From a virus (lineage: Duplodnaviria > Caudoviricetes), in IMG/VR virus record IMGVR_UViG_3300048625_000096, positions 1-61,779 of that record: a DNA stretch of 61,779 nucleotides; one strand, given 5' to 3'. Each line of letters opens with the position of its first letter. The stretch's first letter is position 1. The notes under the pieces are model-generated. The model did no database searches. It had not been told where the DNA came from and saw only the letters and a list, made by a program, of their open reading frames with translations. This document shows, piece after piece, positions 33,900-59,422 of the stretch. The translations under genes were made by a program, and so were the position numbers.

Positions 33900-38053
<4,154 letters not shown>

Positions 38054-38054
<1 letters not shown>

Positions 38055-39692: not shown

Positions 39693-40430
39693 TTATTCTG
39701 CGGGTGTTGTCTCACTAAACTTTTCAAGATAAGCGATTGCATTTTGTAAGATTTCTATGTTGTCCTTGAACTGTCCAAGTCCAGTGTTACAGTGATGACA
39801 AAGAAGTCCGCGAACTTTACCTGTTTCATGGTCATGGTCCACCCTGGGGGTTTCAATAAATCCCTGTTCACAGATAGCGCAAGTACCCCTTTGGTCTAAA
39901 AGCATACTCTCTACATCTGATTCTTCAAGCCCGTATGCACTCCTCAACCCGCGTAGTTTGCTGCATTGCTTACACTGACGAAAGTTAGGGTAGTGGTAGG
40001 TATTATCCTCCGTAAATTCATGGCCTCGTTTGCAGTGGGTCTGCGAGTATTCTTTTCGCTGTTGCTTCTCCGCTTTAATGGCGTTGCGCTCTTCTAAAGA
40101 TAACCAGCGCTTACGGTCAGGATTAGTTCTATTTCTGTAGGCCTCTGTACGTTCTCTTTGACACGCTTTACATACCTGGATACCGTCTGCACGAGTACGT
40201 CCAAACTCAGCGTAGGCGTGACCATTCCTACAATGAGTTCGTAAAGCACGTACCTTAGGTTCATCAGACCTACCAGGATTATCTATGTTGTGACGTGACC
40301 GCCATTTAGTAGGGTCTGGTTTGGGACCAGGCTTGCGTAGACCTCTGGATTTACGTTGCTCTTGACGGTAATGGTTTTGGCACAATCCTTTTGAGTGTAC
40401 TGCACTTTCGCAATTTTCAATACTACACAT
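39693..40430 (-). CDS. free-standing endonuclease VII-type HNH (homing) endonuclease
   Basis: CAIC...VDHDHETGKVRGLLCHHCNTGLG.F.DN; THC.NGH/THCKRGH repeats. Confidence 0.92.
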   Translation of the reverse strand: MCSIENCESAVHSKGLCQNHYRQEQRKSRGLRKPGPKPDPTKWRSRHNIDNPGRSDEPKVRALRTHCRNGHAYAEFGRTRADGIQVCKACQRERTEAYRNRTNPDRKRWLSLEERNAIKAEKQQRKEYSQTHCKRGHEFTEDNTYHYPNFRQCKQCSKLRGLRSAYGLEESDVESMLLDQRGTCAICEQGFIETPRVDHDHETGKVRGLLCHHCNTGLGQFKDNIEILQNAIAYLEKFSETTPAE

Positions 40431-55205: not shown

Positions 55206-55631
55206 TTACCTTTCTAGGTAATCAGCCAGTTTCCTTGCTAGGTCAGGATTGGATTTTAAAAATCCTTCTGCTTGGTTGCAGGAACGACAAAGTATTCCAC
55301 GGACACATTTTCCGCAGGAATACTTGCCTGGACAACACGCGTGGTCATGGTCAACACACAGGTTTTCCATAGAACCACAGACTGCACACCCCTTAGAGAC
55401 CATCTCTAAGTAAATGTCTTCAGCTAACTTGTAAAACGTCCAAACTTGAGACAAACGAACTTTTAAAGGATTTTTAGCCCTAAATGTTTGCTTGTATCGT
55501 TTTGTGGCAGACTTACTTCTGGAGGCCTTTTTACAGTCCTTGCAGTAATAAGACTTTCCATCTTTTGCTTTTTTATCAGCGTTAAATTCATCCACATGTT
55601 TATTAACGTTGCACTTGTTACAATGCTTCAC
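55206..55631 (-). CDS. endonuclease VII-type HNH endonuclease
   Basis: C..C Zn ribbon; CAVC...VDHDH.CC...CVRGILC..CN..EG. Confidence 0.9.
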   Translation of the reverse strand: MKHCNKCNVNKHVDEFNADKKAKDGKSYYCKDCKKASRSKSATKRYKQTFRAKNPLKVRLSQVWTFYKLAEDIYLEMVSKGCAVCGSMENLCVDHDHACCPGKYSCGKCVRGILCRSCNQAEGFLKSNPDLARKLADYLER

Positions 55632-57490: not shown

Positions 57491-57597
57491 TTCTTATCTT
57501 TCTTTGTTGTGCATGAACCACATGGTTTACATCCTAACCCACAAGGACCAGGAGGATTCGTCTCATAACGAGTTTTGCAGCAGTCACAGACCGCCAT
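57487..57597 (-). CDS. 36-aa Cys-rich peptide
   Basis: MAVCDCCKTRYETNPPGPCGLGCKPCGSCTTKKDKK; coupled at both ends (TAATG, ATGA). Confidence 0.65.
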   Translation of the reverse strand: MAVCDCCKTRYETNPPGPCGLGCKPCGSCTTKKDKK

Positions 57598-58052
57598 TAA
57601 TCCAAATCACTATCAATTAACGCATTCGCTTTGGCTTTAGTTAGGTTCTTCTCTAGACGACGCTGATGTCCACGAATACTGTGGCAATTACCACATACAA
57701 GGTCGCACTTCTTCATCTCAGCGATAACAACCTTGATGTCATTAGTGAACTCATACCAAGAAGCGATTGTGAATAATTTTACAAATTGAGGTAGGTGGTC
57801 AAACTGCATAACAACATAAGGCCAGTATTGTTTACAGTCCACACAGTAGTTGGTTTCTTTATAGCTACGAATGAATCGCTTAATAACGTTACGGCTTACG
57901 TTAGCTTTAGCACGAGTATTCTCATTACCATTACCTACGTGGTAAGAGATAGTTGATTTCGCTACGCCTAGAAGGGAGCTGATTTCATCATATGTTTTTC
58001 CTTGTTCGCGTAAGTCACGAATCTCAGGGCCTATGTCTTTTGGTTTCGCCAT
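57597..58052 (-). CDS. HTH + HNH endonuclease
   Basis: LREQGKTYDEIS..LGVAKSTISY; CVDC...FDH...KCDLVCGNCH; start ATG 58052 (longer ORF overlaps tRNAs). Confidence 0.88.
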   Translation of the reverse strand: MAKPKDIGPEIRDLREQGKTYDEISSLLGVAKSTISYHVGNGNENTRAKANVSRNVIKRFIRSYKETNYCVDCKQYWPYVVMQFDHLPQFVKLFTIASWYEFTNDIKVVIAEMKKCDLVCGNCHSIRGHQRRLEKNLTKAKANALIDSDLD

Positions 58053-58059
58053 AAAAGAC

Positions 58060-58087
58060 AGTCTAGTACAAAATGGTCGCATGTCAA
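58060..58087 (-). promoter_or_regulatory. promoter giving a leaderless HNH transcript; -35 lies inside tRNA-Tyr
   Basis: TTGACA-16-TAGACT-7 nt-ATG. Confidence 0.65.
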
Positions 58088-58153
58088 AGAATCGAACTTT
58101 GCTAACCATTGGAAGAGATTTTACAGACCCCTGTACGTCCCAGCGTCCATGCG
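58074..58153 (-). tRNA. tRNA-Tyr(GUA), atypical (C1-G72, reduced D arm)
   Basis: GGGGT-CTGTAAA-ATCTC anticodon arm, long variable region, CAAAG-TTCGATT-CTTTG T arm, ACCA end. Confidence 0.78.
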
Positions 58154-58157
58154 TTTG

Positions 58158-58228
58158 CTGAGCGTGAAGGAATTGAACCTTCTCCTGCGGTGTTGGAGAC
58201 CGCCGTGCTACCGTAACACTTACTCCCA
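58158..58228 (-). tRNA. tRNA-Trp(CCA)
   Basis: GCGGT-CTCCAAC-ACCGC anticodon arm; GAAGG-TTCAATT-CCTTC T arm; CCA end not encoded. Confidence 0.88.
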
Positions 58229-58230
58229 TA

Positions 58231-58689
58231 GTAATCCTCGGCCAGACTTTGTGACTGGCTGTAGAGGCACGAAATAGCTGCATACACAACCGTCTCTAGC
58301 GAGAATCGTGGGATTGTCGGATTTGCACCGTTTGACATGGCTTCACCTGGAGTGCTTCCAGTTACCATACAATCCCTTCCGTACTTCGCATACGCAGGTT
58401 TCGGAGTACCTTTGACGGATGCACCCTGGTTGGCCGATTGCATGTATCCATGTTTAACCAACCAAGTGTGGTGCACTCTTTTTGAGTCATACAACTTAAA
58501 CTCTTTCGAGGTGCCGAACAATTACGAACTGCAGTTGTACATCCTCATGAAAGAATCCCGTGTCAGGGAAATTAGCCCAACTATCTTGCGGTTCTTTCAG
58601 ATTTATCCTATCACCTGCCGCAGCAAAGGGCAATAAGACCAGCAATTCCGTAGGTCGGACGAGTACTCCCATCCCATGAAAGGAACTGC
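58231..58689 (-). ncRNA. large structured non-coding RNA of unknown class (~460 nt)
   Basis: More than 12 nested helices with frequent G-U pairs, GNRA/UNCG/T-loops, bounded by two tRNAs. Confidence 0.75.
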
Positions 58690-58695
58690 TGTTTG

Positions 58696-58766
58696 CTGGT
58701 CTACCTGGAATCGAACCAAGAATCACGAGTTAACAGCTCGTCGTTATGCCTTTTAACTATAGACCA
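58696..58766 (-). tRNA. tRNA-Asn(GUU)
   Basis: TGGTCTA/TAGACCA acceptor; ACGAG-CTGTTAA-CTCGT anticodon arm; GGTTCGATTCC. Confidence 0.92.
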
Positions 58767-58769
58767 AAA

Positions 58770-58811
58770 GACCTATAGCTCTATCTGCTCTGCCGATTGA
58801 GCTATGGTCCA
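58770..58811 (-). pseudogene. 5' fragment of a tRNA closed into a hairpin
   Basis: TGGACCA-TA-GCTC-AATCGGCA-GAGC followed by GAGCTATAGGTC, complementary to its own 5' end. Confidence 0.6.
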
Positions 58812-58813
58812 TT

Positions 58814-58893
58814 AAAAGTGGGTCCCAAGATAAAACACCTCGGAACCCACTTTTGTGGGGGACTTAAGGAAGAAAGGGAAAAACCTTAAGTGG
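58814..58893 (-). ncRNA. candidate ~80-nt small RNA with pyrimidine-rich loop
   Basis: Follows promoter; hairpin ACTTAAGG/CCTTAAGT with loop TTTTTCCCTTTCTT; CCCCC; terminator-like hairpin plus TTTT. Confidence 0.55.
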
Positions 58894-58898
58894 TATTT

Positions 58899-58926
58899 AG
58901 TTTAGTACATTTTATGAACTTGTCAA
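58899..58926 (-). promoter_or_regulatory. sigmaA-like promoter for the sRNA/tRNA cluster
   Basis: TTGACA-16-TAAACT. Confidence 0.7.
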
Positions 58927-58936
58927 GTAAAACTGA

Positions 58937-59089
58937 TTAATAACCGTTTTTAACAATTTCTTTTAGTTCTTCTACTTCTTTACGCAACTTTTCAAGAAGT
59001 TCCCACTGCTGGTACTCTTCGAGTGCTCTATGAGCCTCGTGGTGTTCAGCATTGAGCTTCTCGTTTAGTTTCTTTTTAGAAATCCACAT
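58937..59089 (-). CDS. hypothetical protein
   Basis: Likely start ATG 59089 (MWISKKK), immediately after upstream stop. Confidence 0.6.
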   Translation of the reverse strand: MWISKKKLNEKLNAEHHEAHRALEEYQQWELLEKLRKEVEELKEIVKNGY

Positions 59090-59090
59090 A

Positions 59091-59399
59091 CTAGTTGTCC
59101 TGAAGCAGACGGTACTCGTATAGGCCACGTTCTTTAACACGGCGACGCTCCACAGTAAGTGCGCCATATTGTGACTTACGAAGGTCACGTAGACGAGCTG
59201 AGACTGATGCTTCTGGTGATGCAGTCTTAGCAGCTAGGTCAGAAAGCGAAATCCACTTTCCATCCTTTACTACGTCGTATACCTTTTTCATCTGCTGGTT
59301 AAGACGGTCGTAGTCAAATTCTGCTACGTAAGTCTCCCCTTGACGGTGTCCCTCTAGAACAGGTGCCTCTGGTTGTGCTTTGGCTTTAAATGGCCACAT
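59091..59399 (-). CDS. winged-helix DNA-binding protein
   Basis: W.SL.DLA..T..PEASVSARLRDLRK...G.YEYRL; AAGGAG RBS. Confidence 0.8.
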   Translation of the reverse strand: MWPFKAKAQPEAPVLEGHRQGETYVAEFDYDRLNQQMKKVYDVVKDGKWISLSDLAAKTASPEASVSARLRDLRKSQYGALTVERRRVKERGLYEYRLLQDN

Positions 59400-59422
59400 A
59401 TTATGCTCCTTATTTATTCCGT

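Follow-up and report, generated by a model that had tools for sequence, protein, structure and literature searches.

Shuffled structured RNA cassettes between two transfer RNA genes of an uncultured freshwater phage

The transfer RNA (tRNA) cluster of phage T4 contains two small stable RNAs that are not tRNAs, that are co-transcribed with the tRNAs and freed by tRNA processing, and whose function is unknown. The DNA considered here is an IMG/VR virus record of 61,779 base pairs (bp) from an uncultured freshwater phage, estimated to be 64% complete and hereafter called the window at its full length, in which a gap of 466 nucleotides (nt), located at 58229-58694 on the minus strand, separates tRNA-Asn from tRNA-Trp according to ARAGORN and Rfam. 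The structured modules of this gap can be likened to the T4 RNAs by description, not by comparison of sequences. The large RNAs GOLLD and ROOL are encoded by phages and prophages, often near tRNA islands, with tRNAs in some cases located inside the linker of GOLLD; their function is unknown, and they carry many hairpins with tertiary-contact motifs, as given in the part of the source considered here (10.1101/2024.12.08.627333). By that partial account, the gap resembles them in lying within a phage tRNA island, and differs from them in being shorter and in forming a chain of reorderable closed cassettes instead of one conserved architecture. The Rfam models of GOLLD and ROOL gave no match in the window or in 11 homologous loci at the gathering score, nor in the interval 57900-59000 at E ≤ 10. 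Theta ribozymes, which are of the hepatitis delta virus (HDV)-like type and occur in gut phages, lie within +/-5 nt of a tRNA, according to the portion of the source consulted (PMC10879173). The first module of the gap, module A, is likewise a small structured RNA abutting the 3' end of a phage tRNA, but it has neither the nested double pseudoknot nor a match to the HDV family, and it is found in freshwater, not gut, phages; a theta-like ribozyme role for A fits its position and not its fold. The gap is most likely a tRNA-punctuated array of new small-RNA families. The array is real and new to the curated families, and the kind to which it belongs, the non-coding RNAs of tRNA islands, is already known. 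We judge it fairly probable that the gap is the co-transcribed non-coding interior of a phage tRNA operon, in which seven locally closed modules follow one another in the order A-E-H-C-X-T-D (Table 1).

The minus strand of the gap folds to a minimum free energy (MFE) of -157.5 kcal/mol (z -3.26), a value equalled by 0 of 100 shuffles, against -135.9 kcal/mol for the plus strand (z -1.63; 6 of 100 shuffles as good), and the covarying stems are rich in G-U pairs. A search of the whole window with Rfam 15 (4227 families) at the gathering score returned three tRNAs and nothing else, and at E ≤ 10 the intervals 57900-59000 and 58040-58400 gave tRNAs and chance-level matches only, the latter including Plastid-ycf2, antisense to tRNA-Asn. 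Among these families, no match was obtained for group I or group II introns, RNase P RNA, OLE, 6S or Ms1. Transfer-messenger RNA (tmRNA), standard or permuted, is absent from the window according to ARAGORN and to Rfam at the gathering score, and from the same two intervals at E ≤ 10, and a tmRNA or permuted tmRNA identity of the spacer was rejected on this basis. The same tools recovered the tmRNAs of two related loci, which serve as the positive control: a full tmRNA of 139.6 bits at L003:3024-3376 (+), located just upstream of tRNA-Asn and module A, and an 83-nt tmRNA at L026:9507-9589 (-) that is restricted to the tRNA-like domain, with a G3-U70 pair and an encoded ACCA, and that scores 64.6 bits against the full-length model with about 300 model positions skipped. 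None of the three open reading frames (ORFs) that cross the gap has a Pfam family at E ≤ 1, two of the three extend into tRNA genes, and the homologues vary by compensatory stem changes and module-sized indels. Given the fold z-scores, the negative Rfam and Pfam searches and the extension of ORFs into tRNA genes, the gap is non-coding, structured on the strand of the tRNAs and outside every curated family. These results agree with an earlier note on this DNA, which had been made from its letters and had correctly placed the gap between two minus-strand tRNAs, described it as minus-strand, non-coding RNA structure inside a tRNA operon, and seen no hallmark of tmRNA, RNase P or group I/II introns; the cmscan-type check that it had suggested (GOLLD, ROOL and OLE included) was negative, and the release by tRNA processing that it had proposed is plausible.

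At least five of the modules (A, H, C, T and D) belong to RNA families that are conserved in uncultured freshwater phages, and they act like cassettes. The modules were defined from nhmmer pieces and pattern scans, with coordinates given on the minus strand of the window. When 80 IMG/VR loci were fetched through relatives of the window's ThyX (65-76% identical to it), nhmmer matches to the spacer were obtained in 10 of them (E ≤ 0.01), each time piecemeal; in L045, spacer positions 1-94 are fused directly to positions 212-390. Pattern scans yielded 25 viral stretches for module A (8 judged to be chance matches in coding-like DNA), 21 viral contigs for module H (12 judged genuine copies) and 10 stretches for module T, together with 13 stretches for module A in metagenome contigs. 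The window aside, not one of 136 related loci in the search carries the whole stretch or all seven modules, and both order and content vary among the 15 contigs that bear T. The order is A-C-X-T in L045 and L254, A-C-T in L257, A-T-D in L260, A-H-X'-T in L253 (with D about 850 nt off), A-..-H-X-T in L105, H-X-T-D in L229, H-C-X-T-D in L236, H-C-X-T in L241 and C-H-..-T-A in L249/L255; L261 and L264 have other modules and then T, and in L087 module H stands alone between tRNA-Trp and tRNA-Thr. In 7 of the 15 contigs bearing T, module A is found on the 5' side of T within one array, and T always closes the run of modules ahead of the D leader, a tRNA, A or other sequence. A related strain in a DNA sequencing run (X4) exhibits module-sized skips. 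This varying order, together with the skips, is the behaviour of cassettes and not of one architecture. In the related phages, the cassettes are always found within tRNA islands, butted against tRNA ends. Homologues, for which the earlier note had advised a search, were found by nhmmer only in pieces, with compensatory changes in A, H, C, T and D.

Extra conserved structured modules, missing from the window, were observed in L261 and L264 (about 250 nt upstream of T), and further structured modules about 170 nt after A in L067, L068, L102, L038 and L026. They occupy the same inter-tRNA positions, so that the cassette repertoire is larger than the window's seven. Among cultured phages, a blastn search of the spacer against 50,697 records gave no match, and BRock, the nearest cultured relative by terminase, carries no module A (best match E = 0.43). 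The pattern scan of bacterial genomes used a degenerate 19-mer that was too loose and matched at least 120 loci; when the covariance model of module A (R1) was run on 100 of these (L207-L226 left out), only pattern-driven partial matches were obtained, bar L107. The latter, the only full-length R1 match in the bacterial loci (35.9 bits), was rejected as AT-rich and coding-looking, with no tRNA nearby. R1 gave no match in 151 genomes sampled from a single actinobacterial class, nor did the model of module T (R2) in one genome; having no positive control, these model searches of bacterial genomes do not show absence.

One tie between the array and tRNA biology is the register of module A. The module opens with an invariant AACAG, two bases past the discriminator of tRNA-Asn, and folds into P1 (CAGCAGUUCC/GGAAUUGCUG), one continuous 10-bp helix around a variable hairpin, and a hairpin P2 that abuts P1 without a gap; the 5' AACAG, a CUGG junction and the apical motif of P2 are invariant. 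The same two-helix fold was obtained with RNAfold in 17 of 17 homologues, RNAalifold identified compensatory changes in 8 of the 19 predicted pairs, and P1 pairing is supported by a pair count on 26 distinct copies, in which one row, the window's own, was misread. Exactly one module A per contig was found with R1, in 19 of 89 sources. Of the 22 distinct copies, 17 likewise begin two bases beyond a discriminator, that of a tRNA or of a tRNA-like element: 6 have an ARAGORN tRNA that ends at most one base from AACAG, and 11 further copies show, by eye, a T-arm and an acceptor-like sequence in the same register, the remaining 5 being different. The eleven elements just upstream of A resemble the 3' halves of tRNAs, yet they are not called by ARAGORN. 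In several of the tRNAs and tRNA-like elements upstream of A, a T-loop of the form UGCAA(A/U/C) replaces the usual UUCGA-type loop in L045, L068, L246, L250 and L257, and this includes the tRNA-Tyr of L045, which ARAGORN does call. In L251, the 3' end of a second A-type P2 hairpin apparently lies just before AACAG, suggesting two A modules in tandem.

Module T, of 68 nt, mimics a tRNA and is Y-shaped, with neither a D-arm nor a 7-nt anticodon loop with U33. Its acceptor-type stem of 8 bp includes 4 pairs with compensatory changes, and the third pair is G-C or A-U, never G-U. The long arm consists of AUGG/CCAU, an internal loop, CUGGA/UCCAG and an invariant 5-nt loop, and the 3-bp T-hairpin presents the T-loop UGCAAAU (CGG-UGCAAAU-CCG, invariant in 15 of 15 sequences), followed by a discriminator-like A and an invariant C. 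In the alignment of 15 distinct sequences, pairing holds in 299 of 299 cells; both sides have changed in 8 of the 20 pairs (20 cells), a one-sided change, to G-U, is seen in only 4 cells, and none of 500 shuffles matches, a count that, like the other shuffle controls for H, C and D, is not a probability. All unpaired columns within the fold but one are invariant, and the module is 93% identical per column across contigs whose ThyX is only 65-76% identical to that of the window. It occurs once per contig according to R2. With tRNAs and with the tRNA-like domain of tmRNA, module T shares the acceptor-type stem, the T-arm with its T-loop, the discriminator-like A and a tRNA-like 3' flank; it differs from them in having no D-arm, anticodon loop or G3-U70-type pair, and in being called neither by ARAGORN nor by the Rfam tRNA, tmRNA and permuted-tmRNA models at E ≤ 10. 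An identity as a true tRNA was set aside, there being no cloverleaf and the covariation supporting a Y shape with a single long arm. In L249 and L264, T lies directly upstream of A and is followed by CA-AACAG, the same as after true tRNAs; T therefore occupies the place of a tRNA. Bacterial Y-RNA-like molecules are similar tRNA mimics. A resemblance of the T hairpin to the T-loops of riboswitches was dropped, as no Rfam riboswitch model matched.

Comparative evidence of the same type is available for three other modules. Three elements make up module H: the outer stem UACAACU/AGUUGUA, an inner hairpin that does not vary, and CUC-GAAA-GAG, a hairpin with a GNRA cap. Its 14 distinct sequences have 95.1% of their cells paired and double changes at 7 of 16 pairs, and the score is reached by 0 of 500 shuffles. 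In columns 15/30 of the H alignment A2 (window 58530 and 58515), the unpaired purines are A..G in the window, L229 and L238, and G..A in the other 11 sequences, which suggests a non-canonical purine-purine pair inside the invariant core. Module C is closed by GUGCAC/GUGCAU, a stem that by eye varies in type between contigs, and ends in an apical CAUG-GAUA-CAUG; its 9 sequences show 89.7% of cells paired and 4 of 14 pairs double-changed, with 0 of 500 shuffles reaching the covariation score. The 4 sequences of module D have 92 of 92 cells paired and 3 of 23 pairs double-changed, a covariation score reached by 5 of 500 shuffles. When partners were slid in H, C, D and T, only 23-48% of cells were paired in every case; some of the alignments are small or contain close relatives. 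In the four contigs in which D follows T (the window, L229, L236 and L260), a tRNA or tRNA-like sequence directly follows D, and in L253 the distant copy of D is followed by letters identical to the start of the window's tRNA-Trp. Module E is the weakest of the seven. It contains a C-GCAA-G hairpin and a UCCC/GGGA hairpin, its 5' part aligns by nhmmer to a larger module after A in L067, L038 and L068, and the covariation of its closing stem was assessed by eye only. Module X is always located directly 5' of T, and its design is adopted by 5 of 7 folded equivalents at this position, the window's copy and L236 being the exceptions; the window's own X takes another shape when folded alone and forms no clean stem in the MFE fold of the whole spacer.

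Table 1. Position of the modules, the flanking tRNAs and the other features of the tRNA array in the window
Feature	Coordinates	Strand	Description	Basis
Module A	58601-58694	-		covariance model R1, 84.2 bits; covariation; RNAfold
Module E	58543-58600	-	closing stem UGAAAGAA/UUCUUUCA	whole-spacer MFE and fold alone
Module H	58487-58542	-	three-way junction	covariation
Module C	58412-58486	-	long hairpin UUGGUUGGUU/GGCCAACCA(G)	covariation
Module X	58377-58411	-	stem GUACU/AGUAC around a 3-bp capped hairpin	weak
Module T	58307-58376	-		model R2, 105 bits; covariation
Module D	58229-58306	-	three-way leader, closing stem GAUUCUCG/CGAGGAUU, two arms; ends 3 bases before tRNA-Trp	
tRNA-Asn (GUU)	58695-58766	-	directly upstream of module A	ARAGORN; Rfam tRNA 59.9 bits
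tRNA-Trp (CCA)	58157-58228	-	directly downstream of module D	ARAGORN; Rfam tRNA 49 bits
Leader hairpin	58767-58818	-	upstream of tRNA-Asn	sequence reading; within the RNA-library contig 58326-58818
Promoter-like site	58899-58926	-	TTGACA-16-TAAACT, upstream of the array	consensus scan, 10/12 matches
ORF	58102-58521	-	139 amino acids (aa)	
ORF	58337-58636	+	99 aa	
ORF	58496-58726	-	76 aa	

A contig of 537 nt from a freshwater RNA library (X3, contig 10) covers 58326-58818 with 1 mismatch and joins the leader, tRNA-Asn, A, E, H, C and X to 51 of the 70 nt of T. Three further features of this library are hints only: an Illumina adapter stands directly at 58326 and at 58818, the depth of the contig is 118 vs 5.2 for the neighbouring contig 58903-59400, and no X3 contig covers 58222-58325 or 57600-58148, missing cover proving nothing. 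As the modules are in register with tRNA ends, we infer that they would be released by tRNA-processing enzymes. The host enzymes would cut the array, with RNase Z or an equivalent cutting after the discriminator and so setting the 5' end of A, and RNase P cutting the 5' ends of the tRNAs and perhaps that of T. Our preferred reading, advanced tentatively, is that the block from A to T (58694-58308, about 390 nt) survives as one RNA. In such a molecule, the 5' end would be capped by the structured module A, T would supply a 3' end of tRNA type, suitable for receiving CCA and for resisting exonucleases, and the GNRA-capped and T-loop-bearing cassettes in the middle could provide compaction or docking. 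We hypothesise a role in trans, the favoured candidate being that of a mimic or decoy for a tRNA-binding factor. Taken as a whole, the proposal that this RNA of about 390 nt represents an undescribed class, released at its 5' end when the 3' end of the preceding tRNA is processed, capped there by A, carrying swappable GNRA/T-loop cassettes in the middle and ending in the anticodon-less T, which receives CCA, and that it serves as scaffold or decoy for some tRNA-recognising factor of the host, such as a defence nuclease directed at tRNAs, is speculative and on balance doubtful.

Several points weigh against the explanation of the gap as a modular array and against its A-to-T reading. Most arrays have T after A, but the order is reversed in L249 and L264, which, unless these are permuted, speaks against a constant 5'-A...T-3' unit. 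The junction between tRNA-Asn and A is bridged by the RNA-library contig, so that cutting there is at least incomplete; moreover, Logan contigs show presence and not ends, strand, level or the lasting joining of modules, and the RNA library may contain DNA. Modules E and X have little comparative support, which consists mainly of single-sequence folds and by-eye comparison, and some of the covariation may reflect few inherited events, D being represented by four sequences and T being of low diversity. Finally, no partner protein and no RNA-processing or RNA-repair enzyme was found by Pfam among 33 of the 35 ORFs of at least 200 aa, nor in the ThyX ORF, which was recognised by tblastn and not by Pfam, in a contig that is about 64% complete.

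The earlier note had interpreted the gap as a single ornate RNA of about 460 nt, made of two closed multibranch domains and constituting a new class of the GOLLD/ROOL kind. The whole interval does fold better than its shuffles, it is rich in GNRA-capped and T-loop-like hairpins as are large compact RNAs, and its genomic context is that of GOLLD and ROOL as far as the consulted part of the source describes it (10.1101/2024.12.08.627333). Of the 15 helices named in that note, eight hold, six are contradicted and one is undecided. Those that hold are local: CUUAUUGCC/GGUGAUAGG with its C-UGCG-G cap is confirmed by covariation, CUC-GAAA-GAG, CUUGGUUGGUU/GGCCAACCAGG and GGGAUUGU/ACAAUCCC by the alignments of H, C and T respectively, and the CGG-UGCAAAU-CCG T-loop hairpin by its invariance in the 15 sequences; GGAUGGG/CUCGUCC and UCCC/GGGA were counted with them from the MFE fold only, and GUACU/AGUAC through its equivalents (5 of 7 folded), the window's own sequence having no clean helix in either fold. 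The helices proposed to close domain 1 (GCAGUU/AACUGC and UCAUG/CAUGA) and domain 2 (GUAAU..UCGG/CCGA..AUUAC), as well as GACC/GGUC, AGUUGUAU/AUGCAGCU and CCGUC/GACGG, conflict with covarying local stems, since their strands are already used by P1 of A, by the outer stem of H, or by the closing stem or inner hairpin of D. The seventh of the long-range or closing helices, GGCAC/GUGCC, may be a contact between H and D; its strands are invariant where H and D co-occur, and most copies of H have no adjacent D. The local arms are real and the two closed multibranch domains are unsupported. With all seven modules united at no other locus of the 136, an order that varies across the 15 T-bearing contigs, H standing alone between tRNAs in L087 and D lying about 850 nt from T in L253, a single architecture is very unlikely. 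We consider it more improbable still that the gap is debris, that is, decayed tRNA genes and recombination scars left by the traffic of homing endonucleases, without selection on RNA structure. An ORF of helix-turn-helix (HTH)/HNH type adjoins the array at 57597-58052, a fragment resembling the 5' half of a tRNA lies upstream of tRNA-Asn, and the X4 strain exhibits module-sized indels, all of which would suit this explanation; against it, pairing in A, H, C, D and T is preserved at 90-100% through compensatory changes, and T retains its 93% identity per column in spite of the divergence of ThyX. The probability that one of the gap-crossing ORFs (139, 99 or 76 aa) is a real gene is negligible: three such ORFs exist, but they have no Pfam family and two of them enter tRNA genes, and the homologues differ by stem-compensating changes and module swaps instead of codon-like variation.

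Two further explanations concern what the modules would do for the neighbouring tRNAs. Module A could be a ribozyme whose self-cleavage would trim the preceding tRNA's 3' trailer, as was proposed for theta ribozymes from their proximity (+/-5 nt) to phage tRNAs in the part of the report considered (PMC10879173). In 17 of the 22 distinct copies, A begins no more than two bases from the discriminator, which is compatible with such an activity, as is the invariance of the 5' AACAG, the CUGG junction and the hairpin apex. However, no Rfam ribozyme family was matched even at E ≤ 10, and the RNA-library contig bridges the very junction that would be cleaved. P1 is one continuous helix, and an HDV-like fold was rejected for want of the nested double pseudoknot (P1, P1.1, P2, P3) and of an HDV-family match; the P2-like complement CUUUCA/UGAAAG is found by eye in the window alone among the A copies inspected, and E's closing stem competes with it. 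Cleavage by A itself is accordingly a highly improbable explanation. The modules could alternatively be spacers acting only in cis and lacking any role of their own, which would keep the precursor tRNAs folding independently, guide or time the cuts of RNase P, RNase Z or RNase E, or protect the precursors, and would then be degraded. This would explain why every module lies between tRNAs or tRNA-like elements, with A in a fixed register after a tRNA 3' end and tRNA or tRNA-like sequence directly after D in the four T-D contigs, and why modules are interchangeable between phages and no partner protein was found. It accounts less well for A and T occurring once per contig and not at every tRNA junction, and for one RNA-library contig spanning the block. 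In addition, while the stems vary, no variation is seen in the unpaired bases of T, the core of H or the apex of P2 in A, a degree of constraint beyond what a spacer or insulator requires. We therefore regard a purely cis-acting role as rather unlikely.

The surroundings of the array are those of a myovirus-type phage, with sheath, tube, baseplate J, portal, large terminase, family A DNA polymerase, DnaB and primase genes recognised by Pfam on the contig. Its closest cultured relatives are Streptomyces phages (53% identity for the terminase, with phage BRock, and 62% for ThyX), and the sequencing runs that contain the stretch carry freshwater or aquatic metagenome labels, the habitat being judged without runs X5-X20, whose shares of its words are small. 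In the long leader hairpin that precedes tRNA-Asn, the 5' strand looks like half of a further tRNA, comprising acceptor and D-arm, and the leader may be what is left of a duplicated or replaced tRNA; in the relative from run X4, 20 different letters stand in place of 58723-58785. The promoter-like site upstream of the array is a lead only, as the consensus scan found three such sites in the region against 2.9 expected. Right after tRNA-Trp, at 58060-58150 on the minus strand, a tRNA-like sequence displays a CUGUAAA loop, whose anticodon would be GUA (Tyr), a good T-arm (CAAAG-UUCGAUU-CUUUG) and perhaps a long variable arm, and is called neither by ARAGORN nor by Rfam, even at E ≤ 10. Its 3' end is overlapped by the promoter-like site of the downstream HTH/HNH-type ORF, which is on the minus strand. 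Endonuclease VII-type ORFs are present at 55206-55631 and 39693-40430, also on the minus strand, and two of the three endonuclease-type ORFs (HTH/HNH and endonuclease VII) flank the tRNA region; these ORFs are possible drivers of the mosaicism. Elsewhere on the contig, amid tail and fibre genes, an ORF of 1384 aa (33900-38054, minus strand) contains ten collagen triple-helix repeat stretches (Pfam E 7.6e-77).

A full-text literature search returned no paper on these modules, their shuffling or their tRNA register. A set of 8495 covariation-supported candidate RNAs of 29-151 nt, some of them tRNA-like, has been derived from IMG/VR (Fremin et al. 2023, PMC10690425) and may include modules A, H, C, T or D; module shuffling and a constant register beside tRNAs are both absent from the portion of that text examined. 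The large RNAs GOLLD and ROOL are already familiar from phage tRNA islands, and the design encountered here is a different one, consisting of small, shuffled cassettes supported by covariation. Two of these cassettes are tied to tRNA biology, module A through its register with tRNA 3' ends and module T as a constrained mimic without an anticodon. If the A-to-T proposal is true, a modular RNA primed by one tRNA and tailed by a tRNA-like end would be a third kind of tRNA-island RNA beside GOLLD and ROOL. If the modules act in cis only, they would still represent an unusually well-defined structured punctuation in tRNA operons of the bacterial type. If, on the other hand, they are released and stable, they would offer tractable entry points of about 70-100 nt to the non-tRNA RNAs of tRNA islands, and would suggest that automated annotation misses a layer of tRNA-like phage genes.

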